Positions 8,545 to 56,247 of a stretch of DNA of 64,000 bases are shown in pieces (the first letter of the stretch is position 1; each line of letters starts with the position of its first letter). This DNA comes from Nitriliruptorales bacterium. Its GTDB lineage: Bacteria > Actinomycetota > Nitriliruptoria > Nitriliruptorales > JAHWKO01. The stretch covers positions 4,906 through 68,905 of the forward strand of contig JBHELG010000039.1 of assembly GCA_046263195.1 (NCBI GenBank), given 5' to 3'. The position numbers and the translations under genes were made by a program. The notes beneath the pieces were generated by a model. It searched no databases. It saw only the letters and a list, made by a program, of their open reading frames with translations, and had not been told where the DNA came from.

Positions 8545-9686
8545 GGGTAGACGCCGACCGCGGTCAGCCCGAGTGCCTCCTCGAGGCCCAGGAGGAGGTT
8601 CGCGTTCTGCAGCGCCTGACCTGCGGCCCCCTTGCCCAGGTTGTCGATCGCGCTCGTGACCACGACCCGGTGGGTCCGTTCGTCGACGACGGCGGAGATT
8701 TGGCAGCCGTTGCAGCCTGTCAGGGCCTTGGTGTGCGGGAAACGACCCGGCGGCAGCACGCGAACGAATGGTTCGCCGGCATAGCGGTCAGCCAAGGCCG
8801 CCGTCACCTCAGCGGGCGTGATGTTCTCACGCAGCTGCGCGTAGCACGTGGCCAGGAGCCCTCGTGCCATGGGGACGAGATGTGGCGTGAACGAGACCGG
8901 TCCGAGCTCCCAGCCCCCGAACTCGTCGAGCCAACGCTCGATCTCGATGGTGTGGCGGTGGGTGGGTGCGCCGTAGGCGGCGACGTCATCATGGACATGC
9001 GGGTGGTGCAGGGACTCCTGGAGGCGTCGCCCGGCTCCGGAGGTCCCGGACTTCGCGTCGACGACGATCGTGCCGGGCAGTACCAGCTCGGCAAGGGGCA
9101 GCAGTGCGAGCAGTGCCGCGGTCGGGTAGCAGCCGGGGTTGGCGACGATGGTGGCGCCCCGGATGGCAGGCCGGTTCCACTCGCTCAACCCGTAGACGGC
9201 CGGGGCGCCTTGGGCGGGCGCGGTCTTGGGTTGCCCGGGGAAGGACTGCAGGCCCGGAGGGCGGGGACTGACGAGACCGCGGGGGGGACGAGTACGCGAC
9301 CCGCTCGTGCCACCTGTGCGAGGGGCGAGGTCGGGATGGAGGTGGGACTCGCCGTACCAGACGGCGAAGTCAGCAGGATCGAGACGGAAGGCGGCGGACA
9401 GGTCCACGACCGGGGTTCCCGTCTCGTGCAGGGCCCCTGCCAGCTCCATCGCGGCTGCATGTGGTGTCGCCAGGAAGATGAGATCACAATCCGCGAGCGC
9501 CTCAACCTCGGGTGTGACGAACACCGCGTCGTCGTCGAGGTTCGGGAAGAGTTGGGCCACCGACTCGCCCACCTGACGGTGTGCGGCCACGACGGCGACT
9601 TCGAGGGCGGGATGTCCGCCGAGCAGGCGCAGCAGCTCCGCGCCCCCGTAGCCCGAGGCGCCAACTACCCCGACGGTGTGGGCCAT
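8541..9686 (-). CDS. argC: N-acetyl-gamma-glutamyl-phosphate reductase, carrying an approximately 42-codon repeat-derived insertion
   Basis: Start trimmed to ATG at 9686 (GGGAAGGA 5 nt upstream; MAHTVGVVGASGYGG NAD-binding motif). Catalytic PGCYPTA present. An extra segment lies between HLHPDL and AVYGLSEW. Confidence 0.9.
   Translation of the reverse strand: MAHTVGVVGASGYGGAELLRLLGGHPALEVAVVAAHRQVGESVAQLFPNLDDDAVFVTPEVEALADCDLIFLATPHAAAMELAGALHETGTPVVDLSAAFRLDPADFAVWYGESHLHPDLAPRTGGTSGSRTRPPRGLVSPRPPGLQSFPGQPKTAPAQGAPAVYGLSEWNRPAIRGATIVANPGCYPTAALLALLPLAELVLPGTIVVDAKSGTSGAGRRLQESLHHPHVHDDVAAYGAPTHRHTIEIERWLDEFGGWELGPVSFTPHLVPMARGLLATCYAQLRENITPAEVTAALADRYAGEPFVRVLPPGRFPHTKALTGCNGCQISAVVDERTHRVVVTSAIDNLGKGAAGQALQNANLLLGLEEALGLTAVGVYP
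9201..9326. repeat. hairpin-repeat family A, long form, inside argC (reverse orientation relative to the ribBA and priA copies)
   Basis: The plus strand reads GCGGTCTTGGGTTGCCCGGGGAAGGACTGCAGGCCCGGAGGGCGGGGACTGACGAGACCGCGGGGGGGAC. Its reverse complement aligns with the copies at 30302 and 36607. Boundaries were inferred from the ArgC alignment and are approximate. Confidence 0.7.
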
Positions 9687-11867: not shown

Positions 11868-14800
11868 CTACTTGAGCTGGAAGGCAACCGGGTAAGGGTT
11901 GCCATCGCTGAGCGTGATCGTCACTCGGTAGCACTTGCCAGCCTGCTTCGGGCTCTGCCAGTTGTAGACGAACTGGTTCGCCGAGCTGTCGTAGCGCAGG
12001 CTGGTCCCACCCGTCGCATATTCGTCGAGGGGGTCGGAAGCACCACCCGTGCAGCTCACGACGGCCGAGAGGGTCGTCTTGACGATGGCAAGGTCAGAGA
12101 TGTAACCGTCCTTCTGGTTGGAGACCTGCCACTTCATGGGGGCGGTGGATCCGGCCTTCATGCCGTTGAGCGAGCTGCGGTCGACCGGTGCGGAGAAGCC
12201 GATGAAGTCGAAGCTGACCCTCACCTTGAAGCTCCTGCCGGCCCCGGTGTTGCCCGCCTTGTCCGTGGCCGAGCAGCTGACGATCGTTTCGCCGGGGGCG
12301 AAGGTCGTGCCCGACGCCGGAGAGCAGGTCGGAATGATGTCGCCGTCGACGAGGTCGCTCGCCGTCGCCGAATAGAACACCGTGGCGCCGCTGGCAGAGG
12401 TCGCCATGGCCGCGAGCGACCCGGGAACGTTGACAGCCGGAGCGGTCGTGTCTACCACCGTGACCTTGAAGCTCTTCGACGCTTCGTTGCCCTTGCTGTC
12501 CGACGCCCGGCAGGTCACCTCGGTCGTACCCAGAGGGAAGGTGGATCCCGAACCGGGGAGGCAGGCGGGGATGACGTCGCCGTCGACGAGGTCGTTCGCT
12601 GACGCCGAGTAGTTCACTCTTGCGCCGTCCGCCGAGGTCGCTTCGATCTTCTGGTCGGCCGGGACCACGATGGCAGGCGCCGTCGTGTCGATGACCGTGA
12701 TCGTGAAGCTACTGGCAGCCTCGTTGCCCGCCCGGTCGACGGCGGAGCACGTCACCGCGCTGTCGCCGATGTGGAACGTGTTCCCAGAGGCAGGGGTGCA
12801 GCTGACCTCGATGGCACCCTCGACGAGGTCCACCGCTGAAGCGGAGTAGCTCGCGGCAGCCCCGTCGGGCCCGGCCGCCTCGACCGCGAAGTCAGCGGGA
12901 ACGGTGACCTCGGGGGCCGTCGTGTCGACGACCTTGATCACGAAAGCGCTGTAGCCGGTGTTGCCTGCGGCGTCCCTTGCCGAGCAGGTGACCATGTTGT
13001 CGCCGAGGACGAAGGTGTCGCCGGAGCTGCGGTCGCAGGAGACCGTCACGGCCCCGTCGACCACGTCCGTGGCGGACGTGCCCGTCCACGTGGCCTTGGC
13101 TCCGTCGGGCCCCGTCGCTTCGAGAATCTGGTCGGCGGGCACGATCACGTGGGGGGCGGTCTCGTCCTGGACGCTGATGGTGAAGGCGTTCGTACCTTCG
13201 TTGCCCGCAGCATCCTGGGATGAGCACGTCACCTTCGTCGTCCCGAGGGGAAATGTGTCTCCTGCTTTGGCGTCGCAGTTGGCCGGGAGCAGCCCGTCGA
13301 CCACGTCGAGGGCCGAAACCCCGCTCCAGGAGACGTTGGCTCCATCCGCCGAAGTCGCTTCGGCTTCGATGTTGTCCGGCACGCTCACCTCCGGTGGCGT
13401 CGTGTCCACGACCTCGACCGTGAAACTCATCTCAGCGGCGTTGCCCCGCAGATCCCCGGTCGAGCATGTCACGATGTTGTGGCCGAGGGAGAAGGTCGAT
13501 CCTGAGGCAGGAGAGCACACGACCGGGCGGGAGCCGTCGACGATGTCGAGGGCGCTCGGCGGGGTGTAGCTGGCTCGGGCGCCCCCGGGGCCGGTGGCCT
13601 CGATGACCTGGTCACCGGGCAGATCTGTCAACAGGGGAGGCGTCGTGTCGGACACGGTTATCTTGAAGCTGCCCGAGGCGTTGTTGCCCGTGTTGTCGCT
13701 GGCCGAGCAGTTGACCGTGGTCGTTGCGATCTCGAAGGTTCCCCCCGAGGTTGGCGTGCACTCCACCGGGACGTTGCCGTCGACGAGGTCGCTGGCAGAG
13801 GCGGCAAAGGTGATGTCCGCCCCGGCCGTCTTCGTCGCCTCCTCAGTGATGTCCAGAGGCAGCGTGAGGGCGGGCGCCGTCGTGTCCTTGACCGTCACCT
13901 TGAAGCTGTTGTTGGCCCGGTTGCCCTTTGCGTCGATCGCGGAGCAACTCACCGTCGTGTCACCGACTGCGAAGCTGGAACCGGACGGGTAGTCGCAGAC
14001 GACATCACGGTCGCCGCTGACCAGGTCGAAGGCATTCGCGCTGTAGACGACGGCGGTCTCAGGGCCTTCAGCCTCGGTGTCGACGTCAGCGGGCAGGGTG
14101 AGCGTCGGCGGGGTCGTGTCCTGCACGCTCACGTTAAAGCCTCCATCTGCCCTGTTGCCGGCCTTGTCGCTGGCCGAGCAGTTCACCGGCGTGTCACCGA
14201 GGACGAAGGTGGAGCCCGATGACGGGGCGCAGGTGGGGGTGAGGGCGCCGTCGACGGAGTCGTTCGCGCTTGCGGTCCACGTCACCGCGGCACCCTGCGA
14301 CCCCGTCGCTTCGGCGACCCGGTTGGAGGGAAGCGCGAGGATCGGGCTGGTCGTGTCCTGAACCATCACGTTGAACTGGCCAACCGCCCTGTTGCCGGCG
14401 ACATCGGTCGCCGAGCAGTGGACGATGGTCGGTCCCAGCGGGAAGGTCGAGTCCGACGCCGGCGAGCAGTTCCAACTCGGGGCGGAATCGACGGCGTCGC
14501 TTGCGCTCGCCGTGTAGGCGACGGGCGCGCCGGAGGGGCCGGTGGCGTCTGCGGTGATGTCGCCCGGGAGCGTGAGCGTCGGAGCGGTGGAGTCGACGAT
14601 CGAGTAGACGGCCGAGGCGAAACCCTCGAGGCCCCCCGCGTCCTTGTAGGAGCAGGATGCGGTCTGGTTCCCCAGGCCGTAGTTGGAGAGACCACCCGAG
14701 ATTGCGCTGAGGGTCGCGGGGAAGGTCTTGGCGCCGTCCTCCTTGTCGTCGACGTTGCAGAAGGCTACGGGCACCGAGCCCTTCTCGTAGCTCGCGCCGT

Positions 14801-15293
14801 GGACGACGCCCGAGATGGAAAGGGTGGGCGCCGTGTTGCGCCTCACGACCTTGAGGATGAAGGTCGCCTTACTCGTGTCGTACGCGCCGCTGTCATCGTC
14901 GACGCTCACACTGATCGAGTAGTTGCCCGGAGTCGCCGACGACAGGGTGACCGCCTGGGCGACAGTATCCCCGCAGTCCTTGAACTCGAGGCGGTCGGGA
15001 GGTGACTTCGTCACCCCAGCAGGAACGATCACCGTTACTTTTGCAGGCGATTTCCCCGTCGCGTCGCAGCCGTTGAATCCTCCGGCCTTGTCGTTGTCGA
15101 TGTGGTAGCTGATCGTCGTCGACCCCGACCCCGAGGCCGGCAGCGCGATGGTGTCGCTGCCGCCCGCCACGACGTTGGTCCTCACCACGTCCGCGTAGGC
15201 GGGCAGCATCGTGGCCAGCACACCAAGGACGACCAGGGCATTGAGTACCCTGGCGATGGAGCGGCCGGTCTTTCCGGTCTGAATCCGTCGCAT
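11868..15293 (-). CDS. secreted multi-HYR-repeat protein with a C-terminal PxKF-like domain (1141 aa)
   Basis: ORF trimmed to ATG at 15293; the upstream part overlaps the response-regulator gene on the other strand. Signal peptide ends LATMLPAYA/DVV. There are ten repeats of about 80 aa of the type DTTAPxhxhPxDxxxEATxxxGAxVxYxxSAxDxVDGxxxxxCxPxSGSTFPLGxTxVTCSAxDxAGNxxxxSFxVxV. The tail reads GFSAPV...KAGSTAPMKWQV. Confidence 0.85.
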   Translation of the reverse strand: MRRIQTGKTGRSIARVLNALVVLGVLATMLPAYADVVRTNVVAGGSDTIALPASGSGSTTISYHIDNDKAGGFNGCDATGKSPAKVTVIVPAGVTKSPPDRLEFKDCGDTVAQAVTLSSATPGNYSISVSVDDDSGAYDTSKATFILKVVRRNTAPTLSISGVVHGASYEKGSVPVAFCNVDDKEDGAKTFPATLSAISGGLSNYGLGNQTASCSYKDAGGLEGFASAVYSIVDSTAPTLTLPGDITADATGPSGAPVAYTASASDAVDSAPSWNCSPASDSTFPLGPTIVHCSATDVAGNRAVGQFNVMVQDTTSPILALPSNRVAEATGSQGAAVTWTASANDSVDGALTPTCAPSSGSTFVLGDTPVNCSASDKAGNRADGGFNVSVQDTTPPTLTLPADVDTEAEGPETAVVYSANAFDLVSGDRDVVCDYPSGSSFAVGDTTVSCSAIDAKGNRANNSFKVTVKDTTAPALTLPLDITEEATKTAGADITFAASASDLVDGNVPVECTPTSGGTFEIATTTVNCSASDNTGNNASGSFKITVSDTTPPLLTDLPGDQVIEATGPGGARASYTPPSALDIVDGSRPVVCSPASGSTFSLGHNIVTCSTGDLRGNAAEMSFTVEVVDTTPPEVSVPDNIEAEATSADGANVSWSGVSALDVVDGLLPANCDAKAGDTFPLGTTKVTCSSQDAAGNEGTNAFTISVQDETAPHVIVPADQILEATGPDGAKATWTGTSATDVVDGAVTVSCDRSSGDTFVLGDNMVTCSARDAAGNTGYSAFVIKVVDTTAPEVTVPADFAVEAAGPDGAAASYSASAVDLVEGAIEVSCTPASGNTFHIGDSAVTCSAVDRAGNEAASSFTITVIDTTAPAIVVPADQKIEATSADGARVNYSASANDLVDGDVIPACLPGSGSTFPLGTTEVTCRASDSKGNEASKSFKVTVVDTTAPAVNVPGSLAAMATSASGATVFYSATASDLVDGDIIPTCSPASGTTFAPGETIVSCSATDKAGNTGAGRSFKVRVSFDFIGFSAPVDRSSLNGMKAGSTAPMKWQVSNQKDGYISDLAIVKTTLSAVVSCTGGASDPLDEYATGGTSLRYDSSANQFVYNWQSPKQAGKCYRVTITLSDGNPYPVAFQLK
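12213..14594 (-). repeat. array of 10 diverged HYR-domain coding repeats (about 240 nt period)
   Basis: Periodicity was read from the protein sequence. The DNA copies are diverged, so this is not a recent tandem amplification. Confidence 0.8.
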
Positions 15294-15435
15294 GAAATGC
15301 TTCCCAATCCTCGCGCGGACTCTCGGCCCGCTGGTCTTCTTTTGCGCCGGTTCCGCGGTTCTCCCCAGCACCGGCCCCGCTCTGGTCCCGTCGGACCAGC
15401 TGGTTCTCGCGCTGATACTGAAATCGGCCGGCCAG

Positions 15436-15462
15436 CTGAGAGAACCCTGAGTAGATGCTGAG
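15436..15462. promoter_or_regulatory. three CTGAG(A) direct repeats at exact 11-bp spacing in the divergent HYR / response-regulator intergenic region
   Basis: CTGAG occurs at 15436, 15447 and 15458 (gCTGAGagaac cCTGAGtagat gCTGAGaagac). A further CTGAGA lies at 15510. Confidence 0.35.
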
Positions 15463-15638
15463 AAGACCCTTAGTGTGGCCGAGAGGATCTGGGTAAGTGG
15501 TCGAGGACGCTGAGATACCCGAGCGTGGGACACGGGCCGGGCCGGGGGGAGCCGGTGAGGCAAGGACAGGTGTCCCGGAAAGGGACCTGAGGCTCCTTCA
15601 GGCGCCCAAATCGCCCGCTGCGCCGTTATCCTCTCCCC

Positions 15639-16313
15639 ATGATCACCTCCGCTCCACGGGTACTCGTCGTCGAGGACGACGCGGCCGTGCGCGACACGGT
15701 GACGCTCGCGCTCGAGCAGCAGGGCTTCGAGGTCCGCGCCGTGTCTGACGGGCTCGCGGTCGAGCAGGCGGTTCGCGATTTCCGCCCCGACCTCGCGGTC
15801 CTCGATGTGCGGCTGCCGGTCGGACCGAGCGGCCTCGGTGTCGCCCGGAACCTGCGGACGCTGACCGACGCCCCGATCATCTTCCTCACCGCTGCTGACG
15901 CGGTCGAAGACCGCCTGGCAGGATTCAGAGCCGGCGGTGACGACTACCTGGCGAAGCCCTTCGCCGTCGAGGAGTTGCTCGCGCGGATACGGGCTCTGCT
16001 GCGCCGCTCCGGGCGCATGGCGGCCCGATGGCAGGTCGGCGACGTCGTCGTCGACGAGGATGCCCGCACCGTGACCCGCGCAGGACAGCGCATCGACCTC
16101 ACCCGCACCGAGTTCGATCTGCTCGTCGCGCTCGGGTCGAAACCGGGGCGGGTACTGTCCAAGAGCCAGTTGCTCACAGGGGTGTGGGGTTTCGAGGAGT
16201 ACGACCCCAACCTCGTCGAGGTATACGTGAGCACCCTGCGGCGCAAGCTCGAGCAACATGGGACGCGTCTCATCAACACCGTCCGCGGGGTCGGCTACGT
16301 CCTCGAGCCATGA
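15639..16313 (+). CDS. OmpR/PhoB-family response regulator
   Basis: Receiver domain (VLVVEDD, DLAVLDVRLP) plus winged-helix C-terminus (VYVSTLRRKL, VRGVGYVL). TATCCT lies 6 nt upstream of the ATG with no SD, so the transcript may be leaderless. Confidence 0.9.
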   Translation: MITSAPRVLVVEDDAAVRDTVTLALEQQGFEVRAVSDGLAVEQAVRDFRPDLAVLDVRLPVGPSGLGVARNLRTLTDAPIIFLTAADAVEDRLAGFRAGGDDYLAKPFAVEELLARIRALLRRSGRMAARWQVGDVVVDEDARTVTRAGQRIDLTRTEFDLLVALGSKPGRVLSKSQLLTGVWGFEEYDPNLVEVYVSTLRRKLEQHGTRLINTVRGVGYVLEP

Positions 16314-17707
16314 GGATGCGTACCCCGCCGTTGCGGCGACGCGTCACGCTGTCCGCGTTGGCGGTCGTCGCCGTTCTGCTGCTCACGTTCGACGCGTTCG
16401 TCTACCTCAGCCTGCGCCACAGTCTCGAGCAGTCGCTGAGCGACCTGCTGGCGACCCGCGCACAGCTGGCACGCGAACTCGGTGCGACGGTTCCACGGGT
16501 AGTCCTCGCACCCCGGCTCGGGGCTCTTGCCGTGCCCGCGACCGTGCTTACCCCTGATGGGCAGCGGTTCGAGGCCGAACCGGCCACCCCCCGCCTGGGA
16601 CCCGACCAGCCCCCCACACCGTTGGCTCACCCGCGGATATCGACTCTCGTGACCCTCGACGACGGCACACAGATAGAGGTCTTCGCCACCCGGGCCGGCG
16701 TCGAGACGACCCTCCGCCGTCTGCTGGTGACGGTCCTGAGCGGCACAGCCGCCGCCCTCGCGCTCGCCTACCTGCTGCTCCGCGCCGTCACCTCCCGGGC
16801 TCTCGCACCTCTCGCCCAGGTAGCCGCAACCGCGCAACGTACGAGCGCGGAGCGGACCGGAGAGCGGCTCAGGCCCGAGCGGAGCGACACCGACCTCGGC
16901 CGCATGGCGGTCGCCTTCGACGAGATGCTCGACCGGCTGGAGGACGCGCTCGAACGCTCACAGCAGGCCGAAGAACGCAGCCGGCGGTTCCTCGCCGACG
17001 CTGCCCACCAGTTGCGCACGCCGCTAGCCGGGATCCGCGGGTCCGTCGAGCTTCTCCTCGGCGAGACAGACCCCGAGAGCCGTGACCGGCTGCTGGCCCA
17101 CGCCGTACGCGAGACGGCTCGCATCAGCCGGCTCATCACGAACCTGCTGCACATGGCCCACCTCGACCAGGGCCGGCCGATGCTGCGCGCCGCGACCGAC
17201 CTCTCGGCTTTGTGCCGGCACGAGGTCGAGCGGGCTGCGGCGCTCGCGCCCCATCTCGAGGTCGATCTGAAGCTCGACGACCCGCCACCCCCCGCGGTTG
17301 AGCTCGACGCCGACGAAGTGAGCGAGGCGATTGCGAACCTCCTCGACAACGCCCGCCGCTATGCGACTACCCGCGTCATCCTCGGCGTCGAGCGACACGA
17401 CACCGTTGTCGTCGTCCGCGTCTGGGATGACGGACCCGGAGTGACCGCCGGCGAGGAGGAGCGCGTATTCGCACGCTTCGCCAGCCTCGATCCCTACGGC
17501 GGGGCGGGGCTGGGTCTGCCGATCGCCCGGGAGGTGGCGCGGGCTCACGGTGGGGACCTCACCTACGAGGACGGGGCGTTCGTTCTCAGGCTGCCGATGA
17601 CTCCGCAGCCGCAGCCAAGAGCGGGTGTGGAGACGCCAGGCAAGGCTTGGGACGACCAGGTGGCGCCGTCAGGCCGGCGACAGCCTGCAGCGCGCGATCG
17701 CCTCTAG
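16310..17707 (+). CDS. sensor histidine kinase
   Basis: Start set at ATG 16310, which forms an ATGA overlap with the regulator stop. One TM segment is read at the N-terminus and a second hydrophobic stretch (LLVTVLSGTAAALALAYLLL) before the H-box. H-box AAHQLRTPL, N-box NLLDNARRY, G-boxes DDGPGV and GGAGLGLPIA. Confidence 0.88.
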   Translation: MRMRTPPLRRRVTLSALAVVAVLLLTFDAFVYLSLRHSLEQSLSDLLATRAQLARELGATVPRVVLAPRLGALAVPATVLTPDGQRFEAEPATPRLGPDQPPTPLAHPRISTLVTLDDGTQIEVFATRAGVETTLRRLLVTVLSGTAAALALAYLLLRAVTSRALAPLAQVAATAQRTSAERTGERLRPERSDTDLGRMAVAFDEMLDRLEDALERSQQAEERSRRFLADAAHQLRTPLAGIRGSVELLLGETDPESRDRLLAHAVRETARISRLITNLLHMAHLDQGRPMLRAATDLSALCRHEVERAAALAPHLEVDLKLDDPPPPAVELDADEVSEAIANLLDNARRYATTRVILGVERHDTVVVVRVWDDGPGVTAGEEERVFARFASLDPYGGAGLGLPIAREVARAHGGDLTYEDGAFVLRLPMTPQPQPRAGVETPGKAWDDQVAPSGRRQPAARDRL

Positions 17708-18079
17708 CTCGACCGCGAGGCCCAACATGTCGCTCTCGACAACGACGGCATGCGCGCCGGCGTCGAGGGCGGCGGCGATGAGCGTGTCCAAGGGTGACAT
17801 CCCGATGACGAGACAGCCTGGTGCCTCGGCCTGGAGGGTCGCGATGAGGCGCAGCCCGAGGGTGCCGAGAAGCGCCAGGTGGATGACGGCGACATGAGGG
17901 CGGACTTCACCGGCCAGCCGGACGGCCTCGGAACCCCGGTCCGTCTCGGCGACGACTTCAAATCCGGCGCGTTCGAGGGTGGTGGCGACGACGCGGCGCA
18001 TCCCCGCGTCGTCTTGGCACACAAGCGCGCGGAGCGTTGGGGCCAGTCGGCCGACCTCGAGCCCGGTTTGCGACATCAC
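17669..18079 (-). CDS. stand-alone receiver-like (pseudo-receiver) protein
   Basis: 136 aa with a CheY-like layout (ALVCQDDAG..., VIGMSPLD). The phospho-acceptor position reads VAVIHLAL (His, not Asp), and the conserved Lys position reads VVVESD. The 3' end overlaps the kinase 3' end by 39 nt in convergent orientation. Confidence 0.6.
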   Translation of the reverse strand: MMSQTGLEVGRLAPTLRALVCQDDAGMRRVVATTLERAGFEVVAETDRGSEAVRLAGEVRPHVAVIHLALLGTLGLRLIATLQAEAPGCLVIGMSPLDTLIAAALDAGAHAVVVESDMLGLAVELEAIARCRLSPA

Positions 18080-18112
18080 TTCCCTTCTTCAAGCTGAGGA
18101 TGACAGGCGAAC

Positions 18113-18210: not shown

Positions 18211-18834
18211 TCAGGGGATGGGTACCCCCCAGATGGGAAACCAGCGGGTGAGGTCCTGCTCGATCTGAAGCTCGCCCCCGAGCGCCCCACGAATGCGAAG
18301 CTCGAGCTCGTTGTCGCGCCGCTCACCTTCGCGCGGCACGAAGGGATAGAACGTCCCGCGCTTGTAGAGGTAGACGAGGTGGGCGACGCGCCCCGGATCT
18401 GTCCCGCCCGCGGTCTTGGCAAGGCCAGGACCGCTTTCGCGCCCCAGCTCGTCTGTGAATGCGAACACGGAAGCGAGCAGCTGGGGGCCGAAGCCCCGCT
18501 CCTCGAGGGTGGCGTTCACGAGGTGCACGGTCGTGACGAGATCTTCGAGGTCGGGGTCGCGCACGATGATCCAGTGATAGCCATAGGAGTCCTGGTCCTG
18601 GGCAAGCTCGGACCCGGACTCTTTCGCGCTCACCGTCAGGAGTTCGGCTATCTCTTGTCTGGTCTCCTCGAAGACCTGGCCCGAGGCGGGGCGAAAGCAG
18701 ACTCCGGCGGCGCCGGCCTGCCGCAGCCCGAGCTCCGCCTCGAGGCCGACCGCGGCGCTCGGCAGTGCGAACAGGGCGTCGAGGTTCGCCTGCTTGCGCT
18801 TCGTACGTCCGAGGAGGACGTCGAGGAACCTCAC
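18211..18834 (-). CDS. PspA-associated protein (PspAB-like), containing a short hairpin-repeat insertion
   Basis: ORF trimmed to GTG at 18834, which forms a GTGA overlap with the htpX stop. It sits downstream of htpX in a pspA-pspAA-htpX cluster. The family assignment is from memory of the conserved actinobacterial cluster. Confidence 0.6.
   Translation of the reverse strand: MRFLDVLLGRTKRKQANLDALFALPSAAVGLEAELGLRQAGAAGVCFRPASGQVFEETRQEIAELLTVSAKESGSELAQDQDSYGYHWIIVRDPDLEDLVTTVHLVNATLEERGFGPQLLASVFAFTDELGRESGPGLAKTAGGTDPGRVAHLVYLYKRGTFYPFVPREGERRDNELELRIRGALGGELQIEQDLTRWFPIWGVPIP
18396..18445. repeat. hairpin-repeat family A, short form, inside the pspAB-like CDS
   Basis: GATCTGTCCCGCCCGCGGTCTTGGCAAGGCCAGGACCGCTTTCGCGCCCC is near-identical in layout to the short copy at 30388-30438. 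It is translated as [15 protein letters not shown]. Confidence 0.65.
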
Positions 18835-19751: not shown

Positions 19752-19899
19752 CTAGGTCCCTCCCGCCTCTGTCGCGGTCTGGCATATTCCCGGCCCGCCG
19801 GGCCTTCGGCCCTTCCCCGCAGACCCAAGACCGCCACTACGACCTCTTCCCCGAATCGGTCCCTCCCGCCTCCGTCGTACCACTGAGGACGTCCCACCC
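19752..19899. repeat. intergenic hairpin-repeat cluster (family A long form with ACTACGACCTC tail, flanked by a 20-bp direct repeat)
   Basis: GTCGCGGTCTGGCATATTCCCGGCCCGCCGGGCCTTCGGCCCTTCCCCGCAGACCCAAGACCGCCACTACGACCTCTTCCCC. GGTCCCTCCCGCCTC(T/C)GTCG occurs at 19755-19774 and 19858-19877. Confidence 0.65.
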
Positions 19900-26794: not shown

Positions 26795-26989
26795 CAATCG
26801 TCCCACCGGCGGTCTTTTCAGGCCCCAGGCCGCGACTACGACCTCTCCCCCAGAACCTGGCGTCCCGCCTCCGTCGCCGTCTGGACAAGTCTTGTCGCGG
26901 TCTGTCAGGCCCAAGCCCGCGACTACGACCTCTCCCCCAGAATCATGCCTTCCGGCCTCCGTGGCCGTCTTGGACACGTCTTGCCACGG
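26795..26989. repeat. intergenic cluster of hairpin repeats (2-3 units with CCNAGNCCGCGACTACGACCTCTCCCCCAGAA tails)
   Basis: AATCGTCCCACCGGCGGTCTTTTCAGGCCCCAGGCCGCGACTACGACCTCTCCCCCAGAA, then ...GTCCCGCCTCCGTCGCCGTCTGGACAAGTCTTGTCGCGGTCTGTCAGGCCCAAGCCCGCGACTACGACCTCTCCCCCAGAATC, then ...CCGTCTTGGACACGTCTTGCCACGG. Confidence 0.65.
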
Positions 26990-27037
26990 TTTTGCTGTGC
27001 GGGGACACGCTCCTGCTCCGAGACCGCCCTCCCACCC

Positions 27038-27601
27038 TCAGCGTCCGGGAATCCAGAGGCGGGAGGAGGCCGAGGAGGGCCGTTCCGACCTCTGGGCGGC
27101 GTCCTGACCCGCCGGCCGCGTCGTCTGCTCCCCACCGGGAGACACTGCCTCGGGCGGCAGGTCACCGCTCTCCTGCGCGGGTAGCTTTCCTTCGGCACGC
27201 AGCTTCGCGAGCTCTGATTCGGCTTCGACCTGCCCGAGACGCAGCTGATTGAGCGCCTGCTGCATCTGCTGCTTGAGACGATCCTCCACGTGGGGACCAC
27301 CCATGTCCGCCACGGTGGCCGCGACGTCGATGAGTAGCCGCGCGTCACGGCGACCGAGCTTGACCTCGGCGGCACTGGCGAGCAGCGAGAACGCCTGGGC
27401 GATGATGTCACCAATACCCGCCTGGCGCAGTTGTGCGAGGTAGGCGCGGACCTCGTCCTCACTGGGCTGGCGGGACTGCCCGCTCCCGGGAGCATCCCCC
27501 GGGGAGGCGGGGGTGTCCCCCGCCATGCCCGGCATCTGCCCGCCCGGCCCGGCCCCTCCGGGGCCAGGGGTGTCCCACTCCATACGCTGACTCTCACTCA
27601 T
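27038..27601 (-). CDS. DUF1844-like protein
   Basis: Core IIAQAFSLLASAAEVKLG matches my memory of DUF1844 proteins encoded next to infC in Streptomyces. Low-complexity G/P-rich N-terminus. SD GGGAGA lies upstream. Confidence 0.6.
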   Translation of the reverse strand: MSESQRMEWDTPGPGGAGPGGQMPGMAGDTPASPGDAPGSGQSRQPSEDEVRAYLAQLRQAGIGDIIAQAFSLLASAAEVKLGRRDARLLIDVAATVADMGGPHVEDRLKQQMQQALNQLRLGQVEAESELAKLRAEGKLPAQESGDLPPEAVSPGGEQTTRPAGQDAAQRSERPSSASSRLWIPGR

Positions 27602-29533: not shown

Positions 29534-31129
29534 TCAACGCTCCTCGGAGACGGCGGGATCAGGGACAGCTGGGGTCACCCCGGGCCCCGGGGCAAACGCG
29601 AGACCGTCGCAGACGACCCGGGATGGGCTCATGGGGCCCGGGCTGGTCGGGGTGAACAGGAACTCGGACTGGCGGGCGAGATCACCGACACCGGTCGAGT
29701 CGACCCTTCGCTCGTCAGCGATGGTGAAGACGTGTCCGAGCTTCTCCTGCTTCGTCGCGAGATAGAGAGCGTTGGCTGGGTTCGAGCGCACCTGGAGCGG
29801 TACGCGGTCGACGATCTCCAGACCGAATTCTGCGATGCCAGCCCGCTTCGCGGGGTTGTTCGTCAGTAGTCGCAGCGTCGAGAGCCCTAGGTCGGCGAGG
29901 ATCATCGCGGCGGTGCCGTAGCTGCGCGAGTCGGCGGGGAGGCCCAGGGCGAGGTTCGCGTCGACGGTGTCGCTGCCGTCGTCCTGGAGTTGGTAGGCCT
30001 GGAGCTTGTGGATGAGGCCGATGCCCCGTCCCTCGTGACCTCGCAGGTAGACCACGACACCGCGGCCTTCTTCGGCGATGCTCGCCATCGCAAGATCGAG
30101 CTGGGCACCGCAGTCGCAGCGCCGCGACCGGAAAACGTCCCCGGTCAGACACTCGGAGTGGACCCGCACGAGCACGTTGCGTGCGCCTTCGGTGTCGCCG
30201 TACGCGAGGGCGAGATGGTGTAGGCCGTCGACGAGCGATTCGTAACCGATCACCCGCCAGCTGCCGTAAGGGGTGGGAAGATGGGTCTCGGCGACGCGAC
30301 GAATTGTCCCGCCGGCGGTCTTGACTGTCCCCGCCCTCCGGGCCTGTGGCCCTCCCCCGGACAAGCCAAGACCGCCTTCCCGCCCAGGATCTGTCCCGCC
30401 GGCGGTCTTGGGCAAGCCAAGACCGCCTTCCCGCCCGGGCACGAGCCGCTCGCAACGGCGGCGGTAGGCGATGATGTCCGCGATGGAGATGAGCGGGAGA
30501 CGGTGCCGGTCGGCGAACTCCCTCAGCTCGGGAAGGCGGGCCATGGTGCCGTCGTCACCCATGATCTCGCAGATGACTCCCGCAGGATAGAGACCGGCGA
30601 GACGAGCCAGGTCGACGGCGGCTTCGGTGTGGCCGGGGCGCCGCAGGACTCCCCCCTCCGTGTAGCGGAGGGGGAAGACGTGGCCGGGGCGGCGGAAGTC
30701 GTTCGCAGCGGCCTCGGGGCTGAGCAAGCGCGCGATGGTGTGGGCCCGGTCGTAGGCGCTGATCCCGGTCGAGCGCGGGACGTCGAGGTCGATGGAGACC
30801 GTGAAGTTCGTGTCGGTGCTGGCGCTCGGGGAGGCGACCATGGGCCCGATGTCGAGTTCTTCGAGTCGTTTGGCGACGATCGCCACACAGATGAGGCCGC
30901 GGCCGAACCTCGCCATGAAGTTGACCGCTTCGGGTGTGATCTTCTCGGCGGCGATGACGAGGTCACCCTCGTTCTCGCGTTCGGCGTCATCGACGACGAT
31001 CACCATGCCGCCCTCGGCGATCCTGGCGCGTGCCTGCCCGATCGGGGCGTGCGGGAGCTCAGCCACCACGTCCGTCACCTCCGCCTGTGAGGTCGCCGCC
31101 GGCGCTCCCAGAGGCGTACGCCGCTCCAC
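29534..31129 (-). CDS. ribBA: bifunctional 3,4-dihydroxy-2-butanone-4-phosphate synthase / GTP cyclohydrolase II, with a repeat-derived linker insertion and a C-terminal extension
   Basis: [11 protein letters not shown] (RibB) and [18 protein letters not shown] (RibA). 531 aa, against the roughly 400-425 aa usual for this enzyme. The start is uncertain because the ORF overlaps the ribE 3' end by 71 nt; GTG at 31066 or 31069 is possible. Confidence 0.9.
30302..30440. repeat. hairpin-repeat family A: long copy (30302-30386) plus short copy (30388-30438) in tandem inside ribBA
   Basis: AATTGTCCCGCCGGCGGTCTTGACTGTCCCCGCCCTCCGGGCCTGTGGCCCTCCCCCGGACAAGCCAAGACCGCCTTCCCGCCCAGG followed by GATCTGTCCCGCCGGCGGTCTTGGGCAAGCCAAGACCGCCTTCCCGCCCGGG. 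Confidence 0.75.
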
Positions 31130-35826: not shown

Positions 35827-37965
35827 TCATCCCACATCGACGGGGTCTACATCGACCCTCACGTCGAGGCCCTCCCGGCTCCACACCACACGCAGTGGAG
35901 TGAGCGCGGCGAGCGTCGATGAGCGGTCGGCACTCTTCACGAGCAGACCGGAGCGCTCGCCGAGCGGACGGGGTCCGAGCACCTGGTCGCTGCCGGGGAG
36001 GCCACTGCGCAGGTCGGCGGCGACCCGCCGACCGTCGCCATGGACGTCGAGTCGAATCGCGTAGGCGGCGGGGGGAAAGCGCAGTTCACCTCTTCGGCGT
36101 GCTTCCTCACGCCAGAACGCTCCCGGGTCCCAAGCCACGAGCGCACGGACCGCGTGATGCCCAGGCTCCCGCGTCTGCACGACGACCGCCCCGTCCGGCA
36201 CGAGCGCGCCACGGGTGGCCGACCCGGGGCGCTTCACGCCGGCTGAGCGGGATGGCCACGCGGCCACCCGGAAAGCGAGCCTCAGGGCATCCTCGCCGGC
36301 ATCGAGTGTGGGACGCCTGAGCTGACCGTCGAGATCCGGTAGCACGACCGCCCCCACGGGACCGGGTGGCTCTGACAGGGCCGAGCCCCTCGTCATGACC
36401 ACGATCGCGGGAGGCGGCGGTGCGGGCTGCGCGTATCCCTCCAACACCGCCACGACCGTGTTCCGAAAGGTCCTGGCGAGTTCCGAGCCCAGGCGCGCCG
36501 CTCCCGCCGCGAGCGGCGCAAAGACGTCACCGCCGCAACGGCCGCAGCGCATGTGCTCACGTTCTGTCGTCCAGCCGCACCCCTCGCAGAGGACGGCCAA
36601 GTCACGACCCGTCCCGCCCGCGGTCTCGGCCCTCCCCGCCCTCCGGGCCTGCGGCCCTCCCTCGGGCAGGCCAAGACCGCTCACCCACCCGGAGGCGACC
36701 GCGAGAGAGGAGTCGCACCTTGGGCAGGCGAACCTTTCGCTGCATCGACTGCACAGGAGGGCACGACCCTCCCCGCGACGAGCAGCGAGCACGACTCCGA
36801 GTTCTCCACGCTTCAGGCATGACCGCAGGGCCTCGACGGCGGGAGTGCCGAGTCGGCCGGGAGAACCGGAGAGGGAGCGATCGTCGAGGCGCACGATGGG
36901 AGCCGCGGACCGTTCGGCGCTCCGGTCTGGTACGACCGGCCGCAGGCGCCGCTCGGCGAGCAGACGCCAAGCTGCGGCGCTCGGGACGGTGCCGACCAGT
37001 ACGGCGGTTGCGCCCGCTCGCCGCGCCCGTTCGAGCACGACCTCGCGGGCGTGGTGCCGGGGAGCGCGCCGCTCCTTGAGAGCCGGGTTCGCCTCGTCAA
37101 TGATGACGGCCAGCCCGAGTCGGGCGAGGGGCCAGAACGCCACGCCTCGTTCCCCGACCACGACCCGAAGCTGCCCGCAGCGAGCCTCGAGCCACCCCCG
37201 GTACAGGCGCCTGGCGCCAGGCCCGCCCCGCATGTCGACGGCCAGGTCCCGGAAGGCGTGCGTGACTGCATCGGCCGCGCAGCTCTTCGGCTCCGGTACG
37301 ACGACGAGGACGTCGCGACCTCCGTCCAAGGTGGCCGCGGCGAGTTCAACGAGTCGGACGCCGAGGTTCTCGTGTGGCAGCGTCCTCCAGTAGAAGGCCC
37401 CCGCTCCAGCTTCAGCCGCAACTCTGAGCTCGCTCCCCGCGTGGCCGTAGGGCGACCATGCGCTGTCATCGATCGCGACAGGCTCGGGATCGGGGGGACG
37501 AGCTGCCCGTCCGGGGGGGTACCACCCCGCCTCCTCGGCGCGGCGTTCGACGTCGCTGACGCGCTGGGGTAGGGCGTGGCGGATCACTGCGGCGGTCGGG
37601 GCGGCGAAGCGCTGTGCTGCCCAGCGCAGGACTTCGATCTCTTCCGGCGTCGCCCAGGCGTGCGGGCCGAGAACGCGCCGCACCTCACGGAGCTTGTGGG
37701 ACGACGTGTCTTGCGTCAGGGCGACGACGAGGCCGCGCACGCGCCGACCGGCGAAGACGACTTCGACGCGGGAGCCCACTCGGATGCGAGGCGCGAGTGC
37801 CTCGGGGAGGGCATAGTCGAAGGGACGGTCGAGGTGGTCGGGCTCGACCTCGACGAGAACCTGTGCGATGGGCAGCTGGTCAGACCCCGACGGCTTCGCG
37901 GAGTTCGTCCGCCCGGTCGGCGCGCTCCCAGGTGAAGGTGGCGCCGCTGCGCCCGAAGTGCCCAT
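35827..37965 (-). CDS. priA: primosomal protein N' (PriA), with a repeat-derived insertion in the Cys-rich region
   Basis: N-terminal FDYALPE, helicase-core-like region and a Cys cluster [14 protein letters not shown]...CEGCGW...CGRCGG. The ATG at 37965 overlaps the metK 3' end by 86 nt, so the true start is uncertain. Confidence 0.85.
36607..36692. repeat. hairpin-repeat family A, long form, inside priA
   Basis: ACCCGTCCCGCCCGCGGTCTCGGCCCTCCCCGCCCTCCGGGCCTGCGGCCCTCCCTCGGGCAGGCCAAGACCGCTCACCCACCCGG aligns along its length with the ribBA long copy. Confidence 0.75.
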
Positions 37966-48682: not shown

Positions 48683-48735
48683 GAGGTCGTAGTGGCGGTC
48701 CTGAGCCTAAGAGGTCGTAGTAGCGGTCTTGGGCC
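48683..48735. repeat. two tandem GAGGTCGTAGT(G/A)GCGGTC(C/T)TG(A/G)GCC units (reverse orientation of the ACTACGACCTC-tailed repeats)
   Basis: Units lie at 48683-48707 and 48711-48735. They fill most of the 74-nt spacer between the small ORF stop (48736) and the carB start (48661). Confidence 0.65.
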
Positions 48736-49047
48736 TCACAGGGCGGTCCCGGGCAGGGTGTGGTCGCGCTCGCCTACCGATGTGGCCTCCCCGCCTCCGG
48801 CGTGGACCATGACGATGTCAGACGTGTTCACGAGCACCGTCTCCGCCCGCTCCCGTTCCCCCGCGAGCTCGTAGACGGCGTCCACGATGGGCAGGAAGTT
48901 GGGCGGCGAGATGTTCAACACGTCGGAGATGCGGCGGTTGTAGGTGCGGGTTTCGACCTGCACCTCTCCTTCGACGATGCAGCCGTTGCGGAGAAACACC
49001 TTGACCCGGACCGGCCGGGTGCGCACGGGAGCCTGCGGATCACTCAT
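48736..49047 (-). CDS. hypothetical protein (103 aa) between carA and carB
   Basis: Trimmed to ATG at 49047: ATGA overlap with the carA stop, and AAGGCGGAG 4 nt upstream. Sequence: MSDPQAPVRTRPVRVKVFLRNGCIVEGEVQVETRTYNRRISDVLNISPPNFLPIVDAVYELAGERERAETVLVNTSDIVMVH... I recognise no family. Confidence 0.5.
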   Translation of the reverse strand: MSDPQAPVRTRPVRVKVFLRNGCIVEGEVQVETRTYNRRISDVLNISPPNFLPIVDAVYELAGERERAETVLVNTSDIVMVHAGGGEATSVGERDHTLPGTAL

Positions 49048-55062: not shown

Positions 55063-56247
55063 TCACAGAACCACGAGATCGTGCGAGGATGAGGTGAGGA
55101 TGTCGGGCGGACCGGTCACGGTCACGACCACGGTGTCCTCTATGCGGACCCCTCCGACTCCAGCAAGATACACGCCAGGCTCGACCGTGACCGTCATGCC
55201 CGGCTCGAGGTTAGCACGGCCCCCCTCCGCGAGGGTTGGCCACTCGTGTATTGCCAGCCCCACACCGTGCCCCGTCGGATGCAGGAACTGCTTGCCGCGG
55301 CCTGCGGCCGCGATAGGTTCCCGGCAGGCCCGGTCGACTTCACCCACCGCGACACCCGCCAGGGTTGCCGCCACTCCCGCAGCCTGGGCGCAGCGGACGA
55401 GGTCGTAGACGGCTCGGAGTTCCGGACCGGGGTCGCCGAGGGCGACAGTGCGGCTCATGTCAGCGTGATAGCCGCCGTAGCGCGCCCCGAAATCGAGCTT
55501 GAGAAGGTCACCCGGGCGTAGCTCGCGAGTGGTTGGGCGATGGTGGGGAATGGCGCTGTTGGGTCCCGAGGCGACGATGGTGTCGAAGGCCGGGCTCTCC
55601 GCCCCGAGGTCGACCATGCACCGGTCGAGTGCCACGGCCACAGCGCGCTCGTTAGCCCCGGGGCGCAGCGAGCCGAGCACATGCTCGAACGTCGCGACCG
55701 TGATGGCACATGCGGCGCGGATGGCGGCAAGCTCATGTTCGTCTTTCACCGCCCGCAACGCTTCGACCTGTCCTGACGCTGGGCGCGCGTCGATGCCTTC
55801 TTCTCGAGCTTTGCCACGCAGGCTCTCCCCGGCATCCCAGGAGAGGTGGTCAGCTTCGAACCCGACCGTTGCTAGTCCCGCTCTGGAGAGTCGCCGGACG
55901 ATGCGGTCCGGAACGCCCGAGCGCAGCGTCACGAGGTCCAAGCCGGGGGCCTCGGCGTGCGCCTGAGTCGTGTAGCGAGAGTCGGTGAAAAGGACGTCGA
56001 GTTCACCGTCGCATGTCACGAGCACGCGACCATTCGTGCCCCTGAAGCCGGTGAGCCAGCGGACGTTGCGCAGATCGGTGACGTAGAGGGCTTCCAGTTC
56101 TCGCTCCGCGAGTCTGGCACGGAGGCGATCACGGCGCCGCCGATGGTCGACAGGCGGCGGGAGGGCGGGAAAATCGGGGCACGCCGACGCAGGCGGCGGG
56201 AGGGTGGGAAAATCGGGATACGCCGCCGGTTCAGCGCCGGATGTCAC
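55063..56247 (-). CDS. M24-family Xaa-Pro aminopeptidase/dipeptidase
   Basis: HPTGHGVGLAIHEWP and VEPGVY metal-ligand motifs. GTGA overlap with the aroQ stop. The N-terminus carries a 13-aa tandem duplication. Confidence 0.85.
   Translation of the reverse strand: MTSGAEPAAYPDFPTLPPPASACPDFPALPPPVDHRRRRDRLRARLAERELEALYVTDLRNVRWLTGFRGTNGRVLVTCDGELDVLFTDSRYTTQAHAEAPGLDLVTLRSGVPDRIVRRLSRAGLATVGFEADHLSWDAGESLRGKAREEGIDARPASGQVEALRAVKDEHELAAIRAACAITVATFEHVLGSLRPGANERAVAVALDRCMVDLGAESPAFDTIVASGPNSAIPHHRPTTRELRPGDLLKLDFGARYGGYHADMSRTVALGDPGPELRAVYDLVRCAQAAGVAATLAGVAVGEVDRACREPIAAAGRGKQFLHPTGHGVGLAIHEWPTLAEGGRANLEPGMTVTVEPGVYLAGVGGVRIEDTVVVTVTGPPDILTSSSHDLVVL
56152..56225. repeat. 39-bp tandem duplication (two 35-bp near-identical cores) in the peptidase 5' end
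   Basis: AGGCGGCGGGAGGGCGGGAAAATCGGGGCACGCCG lies at 56152-56186 and AGGCGGCGGGAGGGTGGGAAAATCGGGATACGCCG at 56191-56225. They encode PDFPTLPPPASAC and PDFPALPPPVDHR. Confidence 0.8.

Follow-up and report, generated by a model that had tools for sequence, protein, structure and literature searches.

The ribBA locus and its in-frame insertion

The stretch of DNA analysed here (the window) comprises 64,000 nucleotides of contig JBHELG010000039.1 from a Nitriliruptorales bacterium (assembly GCA_046263195.1), and the gene at issue is its ribBA, coding for a bifunctional 3,4-dihydroxy-2-butanone 4-phosphate (DHBP) synthase / GTP cyclohydrolase II, into which a 138-nt array of two related palindromic units is inserted between the two domains. 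The gene lies in a ribD-ribE-ribBA-ribH cluster, in a window of 68% G+C whose minus strand holds nearly all genes. The features of the gene and of its insert are as follows:

29534-31129, minus strand: ribBA open reading frame (ORF), 531 aa from the first GTG (510 aa in the NCBI version, MFN2555974.1)
30464-31036, minus strand: RibB (DHBP synthase) coding region, aa 32-222 (Pfam PF00926, E 1.7e-81, 272.8 bits)
29798-30298, minus strand: RibA (GTP cyclohydrolase II) coding region, aa 278-444 (Pfam PF00925, E 1.8e-68, 229.7 bits)
30302-30388, plus strand (tag first, with the [C/T]GTCCC end; read on the minus strand in ribBA): long unit, 87 nt, 29 codons
30389-30439, plus strand (read on the minus strand in ribBA): short unit, 51 nt, 17 codons, with an 11-bp stem and a 5-nt loop

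Both domains are carried by one polypeptide with all invariant columns of an 18-sequence RibBA alignment kept, and the gene remains a single ORF despite the insert, as 138 nt is a multiple of three, free of stop codons, and leaves both catalytic domains intact. Comparison with the RibBA of Mycobacterium tuberculosis (PDB 4I14, E 9e-139) places residues 31-228 of the window protein opposite residues 8-207 and residues 276-471 opposite residues 209-408, with query residues 229-275 facing one single residue of 4I14. Judging by the pathway, this riboflavin enzyme would be essential. The preliminary description of this DNA had read the interval 30302-30440 as one long and one short element copy, head to tail and with near-identical arms. 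The DNA bears out this layout, and the protein sequence given there for the linker between RibB and RibA is exactly the one encoded; the start of the interval also holds, and its end lies one base too far, the bounds being set at 30302-30439 (138 nt, 46 codons) by comparison with the empty orthologous site of a relative, GCA_030863405.1 (L002). The insert falls at the junction of the RibB and RibA domains, RLV|RRV in the protein.

MFN2555974.1 is named only "GTP cyclohydrolase II" at NCBI and its insert-free relatives are named bifunctional RibBA; the 46 additional residues may be the cause of the failed naming by the family model. At its C-terminus (window 29534-29730) the protein also bears an extension of approximately 65 aa past the GTP cyclohydrolase II domain, ending in ...GLAFAP; being conserved in relatives within Nitriliruptoria, this extension was ruled out as another copy of the element.

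Architecture of the two repeat units

On the plus strand the long unit is laid out as AATTGTCCCGCCGGCGGTCTTG-[core]-CAAGCCAAGACCGCCTTCCCGCCCAGG, and the short unit consists of the same arms around nothing more than its 5-nt loop. The arms common to the two units match at 20/22 and 28/30 bases (48/52 together), and what distinguishes the long from the short unit is a 36-nt core with an inner GGGCC-TGT-GGCCC hairpin, nested within the outer stem GGCGGTCTTG(G)/(C)CAAGACCGCC. The stem 10-mer GGCGGTCTTG occurs 7 times in the window vs. 0.31 expected, and the two-arm pattern yielded 4 matches vs. 0.00 expected in shuffles.

The units are predicted to fold strongly on either strand: the minimum free energy calculated for RNA is -44.3 kcal/mol (z -2.9) for the long unit, -27 for the short unit and -74 (z -2.4) for the whole array, and hairpin z scores relative to shuffles range from -2.3 to -2.9 across units. 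Such hairpins without a U-run after them were ruled out as intrinsic terminators, and an intein or intron was ruled out as well, the insert being too short and lacking the hallmarks of either. In an AlphaFold model of RibBA (built on a shallow alignment of 18 sequences, overall predicted local distance difference test score, pLDDT, of 71) residues 228-273 have a pLDDT of ~30 and no secondary structure between confidently predicted flanking domains, which supports, without proving, a disordered spacer between RibB and RibA.

Filled and empty alleles of the RibB-RibA linker

The spacer between the two domains is otherwise nearly invariant in length. We surveyed the 120 best RibBA matches, 109 of them with recognisable flanking motifs, and found a spacer of 14-15 residues in 106 of the 109; the only exceptions are the window protein itself (60) and its closest relatives (44 in P0002 and 24 in P0020). 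In the 18-protein alignment all sequences at or below 70% identity go directly from ...RLV to RRV..., and the window protein has 46 residues more.

Two related lineages provide alternative alleles of the same linker. In L002 the window insertion point is empty (CGGCTCGTG^CGTCGGGTC), and a different G/C-rich insert of 30 nt, CAGGGCGGGGAACACCCCCCCACCCCCGGG (+10 aa, QGGEHPPTPG), is present 9 nt upstream of this point; no further copy of it was found, and it may be either a relic or a separate mini-element. In GCA_030155285.1 (L001) one 90-nt unit (+30 aa) occupies the identical position of ribBA with a different core, hereafter "core B", which is homologous to a window intergenic unit at ~26941-27045 and to a second L001 unit. 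On the coding strand the unit in the ribBA of L001 ends in 22 nt (CAAGACCGCCGGCGGGACAATT) identical to the window long unit. The ribBA genes of the window, L001 and L002 are about equidistant, with 86-87% DNA identity overall and 72-75% at third codon positions, so that identity over a whole 22-nt arm exceeds what neutral drift would leave after a shared insertion (0.73^22 ~0.001). Two explanations are likely: one hotspot was hit more than once, independently and recently, or a resident copy has evolved in concert with the other members of the family.

Copies of the element in other genes

A search with the units as queries (BLAST and nhmmer) located further copies in three other genes of the window:

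36607-36693, plus strand (same orientation to the gene as in ribBA; gene on the minus strand): long unit in priA, 87 nt, in frame
9213-9296, minus strand (opposite orientation to the gene; gene on the minus strand): long unit in argC, 84 nt, 28 codons, in frame
18394-18447, plus strand: short unit in a gene of the pspAB family, 54 nt inserted (the unit and 3 further nt), 18 codons, in frame

Altogether, the genic family thus amounts to five units in four genes (ribBA, priA, argC and pspAB), all of them multiples of three in length, stop-free, in frame and absent from the homologues. The ribBA long unit has 78-79% identity with its counterparts in priA and argC, the ribBA short unit is 85% identical to the pspAB short unit, and the ribBA short unit shares its exact hairpin with a unit of another metagenome-assembled genome (MAG), L035. 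The ribBA, priA and pspAB units are read in the same sense and frame (...GLGL...TAGGT); the argC unit is read from the opposite strand as RPPRGLVSPRPPGLQSFPGQPKTAP (...RPPGL...PKTAP...); both orientations are tolerated.

Each of these insertions was delimited by comparison with homologues. In priA the unit lies in a hairpin loop between CPRCD and CEGCG, the CxxC pairs of a Cys-rich zinc-binding region, and it adds ~29-32 residues relative to 11 homologues, 10 of which have no insert; the eleventh carries an unrelated insert at the same loop. The argC unit corresponds to 84 nt extra relative to the two closest orthologues (75-78% identity), within a loop variable throughout the clade; three other ArgC relatives (P0129, P0130 and P0137) carry unrelated inserts in this loop. 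The pspAB insertion accounts for 54 nt extra relative to the orthologue in L127, a further related MAG that has an intergenic copy, and an 8-nt direct repeat, GGGGCGCG, borders it on both sides; this repeat is composed of the element's own start and native Gly-Arg codons and could be a microhomology junction instead of a true target duplication.

Ends, stem and candidate target site

In an arm alignment of ten copies (loops replaced with GAAA), 88% of the cells of the 11-bp outer stem are paired. Three stem pairs are changed on both sides, a covariation only weakly above shuffles (reached by 19/500). The alignment shows that the palindrome is conserved and does not tell apart a DNA from an RNA role of the hairpin. 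A [C/T]GTCC start is shared by all ribBA, priA, argC, pspAB, L001, L014 and L035 units and by the unit at 26796, and none of the units has a GTAG tag. Terminal inverted repeats are absent, AATTGTCCCGCC being unmatched to CCYGGGCGGGAA (the reverse complement of the other end), and the inverted repeat is internal. No target duplication is seen at ribBA or argC when filled and empty sites are compared, pspAB alone having its 8-nt direct repeat. With neither terminal inverted repeats nor a consistent target duplication, the family would more likely have moved by a REP-type mechanism (after repetitive extragenic palindromic sequences; single-strand, hairpin-recognising) or a recombination-based one than as a cut-and-paste miniature inverted-repeat transposable element (MITE).

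A heptamer, CGSGTCG on the coding strand, recurs next to the insertions:

30292-30298, plus strand: CGACGCG (CGCGTCG on the coding strand), 3 nt from the ribBA tag end, candidate target motif
18384-18390, 36605-36611 and 9297-9303: CGACSCG (CGSGTCG on the coding strand) at the other genic sites

At 4/4 genic sites the distance between this heptamer and the [C/T]GTCCC end is 0-13 nt, and orthologous sites without a unit already contain it, namely those of ribBA in L002 (as CGGGTCG), pspAB in L127 and argC in L128. With a density of 0.0017/nt, its occurrence within 16 nt at 4/4 sites has p ~5e-7, before correction for the post hoc choice of the motif; this suggests a candidate targeting signal.

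Intergenic relatives and spread of the family

Related units also occupy intergenic DNA of the window:

19773-19877, plus strand: related unit between pspAA and an M48 peptidase gene, in a position conserved in L127
26796-27040, plus strand: cluster upstream of infC, head-to-tail units with 87-nt spacing, the 3' part homologous to core B
48683-48760: 28-nt tandem between carB and carA, a related repeat variant

More degenerate related units with the ACTACGACCTC motif make up these intergenic clusters (19.8 kb, 26.8-27.0 kb and 48.7 kb), none of them inside a gene, and no further degenerate element-derived peptides were found in 58 window ORFs. In other MAGs, short units lie in intergenic or 5'-untranslated DNA (L014 and L035), and in L001 a core B unit at 1476-1563, just upstream of ribBA, overlaps ribE at its 3' end, the final residues of riboflavin synthase and its stop codon being part of the unit.

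Full-length matches were confined to loci of related MAGs among 920 kb of loci, mostly from unrelated high-GC genomes, and the density of units in the DNA examined is ~1 per 6-7 kb. A scan of genome contigs with the left arm only (an 18-mer) produced many chance high-GC matches, with L014, L035 and L039 as the real ones among the matches listed. The two-arm pattern gave 5 matches in a metagenome scan, all of them due to chance and to the relaxed CCARSACCGC arm, and 0 matches in a viral scan. A search of 5.8 billion proteins with the 46-aa insert peptide returned 4 candidates, none of them scored, probably owing to composition filters, and Rfam contains no family matching at the gathering threshold, with noise alone at E<10. 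The family appears limited to this lineage of Nitriliruptorales-like MAGs.

Two other segments of the window are recorded here as separate observations. A 39-nt tandem duplication at 56151-56225 (1.9 copies with a 91% match), situated at the N-terminus of an M24 peptidase gene or immediately before it, contains GGCGGGAGGG, which resembles the tag region of the family. Between an ABC transporter gene and pspAB, positions 11868-18100 represent ~6 kb extra relative to the syntenic L127 contig and encode a 1463-aa protein (~10 HYR domains, 237-nt internal repeats), two ORFs without Pfam domains and a response-regulator receiver.

Discussion

Combining the filled and empty alleles of ribBA with the copies in three unrelated genes leads us to the view that the linker insert is, quite probably, tolerated selfish DNA resembling REPs and Rickettsia palindromic elements (RPEs), namely a lineage-specific dispersed repeat with a nested palindrome residing in a permissive linker. 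The family would be a new and lineage-restricted one within the known REP/RPE-like repeats that colonise coding sequence in frame, and it would have spread into intergenic DNA as well as into surface loops and linkers of housekeeping genes in a Nitriliruptorales-like lineage. The claim that the units are element copies, made in the preliminary description, finds support in the 51- and 87-nt units at 78-85% identity in priA, argC and pspAB and in the related intergenic units. The permissiveness of the linker, also proposed there, agrees with the three insert alleles in related lineages (+138, +90 and +30 nt), with the pLDDT of ~30 and with the single 4I14 residue opposite the insert; alignment with relatives revealed no linker of the same length in non-repeat DNA, 106 of the 109 homologues retaining the spacer of 14-15 residues. 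The insert would be translated as a disordered 46-residue spacer that is tolerated and not needed, with selection presumably retaining only stop-free insertions of 3n length at permissive positions such as loops and linkers. Insertion may be directed to sites beside a CGSGTCG-like heptamer, and such a site preference would explain why the identical position of ribBA is occupied in a second lineage.

How the tandem itself arose is a separate question, and here the chances of a local process (duplication with core loss or gain, or gene conversion) seem to us roughly even. The array would then have been formed, at least partly, by events on a resident copy, i.e., duplication, gain or loss of a core, or gene conversion. 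The diagnostic arm variants of the ribBA long unit (the TGTC tag, G and T at variable sites and the TTCCCGCCC tail) are those of its short neighbour, and the priA and argC long units differ from it at every diagnostic arm position; a local process on the resident copy is favoured because the arms of the long unit carry the variants of the short one. The same observation, that both arms bear the neighbour's variants unlike those of the other two long units, counts against two independent insertions, by which the short and the long unit would each have integrated at or beside the same hotspot without local duplication, and so does the lack of CGSGTCG where the start of the long unit adjoins the tag end of the short one. 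Nevertheless, independent insertion is a realistic possibility, if short of a probable one: short forms (pspAB, L014, L035) and long forms (priA, argC) each stand alone elsewhere, the near-consensus hairpin of the ribBA short unit, found unchanged in a unit of another MAG, possibly marks a young copy, intergenic DNA also holds head-to-tail arrays, and the filling of the L001 site by a different core type, with three roughly equidistant lineages, favours a hotspot. Growth of an ordinary low-complexity linker by tandem duplication of native sequence, with no dispersed element involved, would account for the adjacency, common orientation and nearly identical arms of the units, and Gly/Pro/Ala-rich linkers are often found in high-GC genomes; this explanation is nonetheless extremely improbable, as relatives have no linker sequence from which to grow and the same DNA, at 78-85% identity and with its nested hairpin, is found in priA, argC (inverted), pspAB, intergenic DNA and other MAGs. 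Very little probability attaches to an assembly artefact, in which the array was expanded, collapsed or mis-joined. The contig does come from a MAG, and repeats are error-prone in short-read assembly, but the shared arms of only 20-30 nt are below typical assembly k-mers, neither length nor content is the same in the two units, the frame is kept across 138 nt, and the independent assemblies GCA_030155285.1 and GCA_030863405.1 also have in-frame linker inserts.

Co-option, i.e., a function of the 46-aa spacer or of the mRNA or DNA hairpins (in domain spacing, translational pausing, or processing or stabilisation of the rib operon mRNA), we regard as unlikely. REP hairpins are reported to influence mRNA stability (PMC3733652), and the array folds strongly (-74 kcal/mol, z -2.4), with outer-stem pairing retained through some double changes. 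However, the covariation is weak, being reached by 19/500 shuffles, and the hairpins are without a U-tract terminator. Between lineages the arms have changed less than neutral sites in the flanks, which recent insertion or conversion explains equally well. Furthermore, the length and core of the insert are wholly different in three lineages (+46, +30 and +10 aa), other homologues are insert-free, and the same sequence is present in unrelated proteins in both orientations.

Several points weigh against the interpretation as a tolerated mobile repeat, or at least against parts of it. The 22-nt identical arm, despite ~73% third-position identity of the flanks, fits both histories considered for the ribBA site, separate recent insertions and concerted evolution. 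The heptamer CGSGTCG was picked post hoc from four sites and in argC is inverted relative to the element. We saw no transposition event, no transposase and no REPtron (a transposase gene flanked by repeats) in the window, whose ~50 ORFs are housekeeping by Pfam (including arg, psp, pheST, infC, his, rib, fmt/def, priA, metK, pyr and aro genes). Finally, the copy numbers are drawn from ~100 kb of fragmentary MAGs.

In-frame insertion of palindromic repeats into genes is established for Rickettsia RPEs (PMC10969869) as well as for GTAG- and CGTC-tagged REPs of several phyla (PMC3733652). Most documented cases of small palindromic repeats colonising genes in this way are from Rickettsia and a few proteobacteria. 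The present family resembles RPEs (Ogata et al. 2000, reviewed in PMC10969869 and PMC3733652) in comprising dispersed palindromic repeats that occur in frame in unrelated housekeeping genes and encode extra peptide segments, in choosing fold-compatible positions, in having intergenic copies too, and in lacking any known associated transposase. Indeed, RPE-like placement on surfaces, loops or linkers is seen at the RibBA domain junction, in the variable loop of ArgC and in the PriA loop between the CxxC pairs. It differs in the host, a free-living high-GC actinobacterial lineage instead of an obligate intracellular alphaproteobacterium, in base composition (>70% G+C vs. an AT-rich host), in unit length (51-90 nt vs. 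~100-150 nt) and, unlike RPEs, in its shared arms, exchangeable cores and head-to-tail array. Judged by base composition and host, homology to the consensus of RPE-1 to RPE-10 is very unlikely.

The CGTC REPs (Di Nocera et al. 2013, PMC3733652) provide another close parallel. They have an unpaired CGTC, often TGTC, at one end (here [C/T]GTCCC), a hairpin with a 5-nt loop as in our short unit, no dedicated transposase known, and intragenic copies, including groups encoding 20-82 aa, often in replication/repair genes, among which priA would count here. More than half of the inserts described for intragenic REPs are dimers or groups encoding 20-30 aa, with clusters of 43-82 aa; replication and repair genes are frequent hosts, and the authors proposed that the inserts lie in flexible linkers or loops (PMC3733652). 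CGTC REPs were reported in five phyla, Actinobacteria not among them (PMC3733652). Substantial differences are also evident. CGTC REPs have stems of 8-9 bp whose first two pairs are A/T, loops of 4-5 nt and a CCA tail, whereas the stem in the present family is of 10-13 bp, G/C-rich and begins with GGCGG, with 5 nt between tag and stem, a loop of 5 nt in the short unit only (39-42 nt in the long) and a TTCCCGCCC/CTCCCACCC tail. In addition, CGTC REPs are mostly head-to-head dimers, head-to-tail arrangement being described as "negligible", and both the ribBA array and the 26.8-kb cluster run head to tail.

Other known systems are more distant. Bacterial MITEs (ERIC, BOX, Nezha and others; PMC10969869) are likewise small, non-autonomous, hairpin-forming repeats that can produce in-frame fusions with host ORFs, but they are defined by terminal inverted repeats (~15-30 bp) and target-site duplications, neither of which characterises the present family. 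The GTAG REPs with their REP-associated tyrosine transposase (RAYT) form REPtrons, in which a Y1 transposase gene is flanked by repeats; the present units lack a GTAG tag, and a Pfam scan of ~50 window ORFs found no transposase. We found no description of such repeats in Nitriliruptoria or other Actinomycetota in the literature searched.

Overall, the locus is not a new kind of biological system, and it represents a clear case of in-frame repeat colonisation in an uncultured actinobacterial lineage of high GC content: three lineages show one site naturally filled or empty, four host genes fall within 64 kb, and there is a candidate target motif. It also flags a source of annotation errors, a RibBA labelled by NCBI only as "GTP cyclohydrolase II", and it reveals that the otherwise rigidly conserved RibB-RibA spacer of 14-15 residues tolerates up to 46 extra residues. 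These alleles provide material for asking how repeats spread without a known transposase. A bolder interpretation, which we find rather doubtful on present sequences, is that of an active, site-directed, non-autonomous element that integrates beside a CGSGTCG-like heptamer and duplicates no target sequence, exchanges modular cores within common arms and is preferentially retained where it forms in-frame peptide insertions, the host being a free-living actinobacterium of high GC content. If true, this would extend RPE-like systems beyond intracellular bacteria and would offer a tractable case for how transposase-less CGTC-type REPs move.

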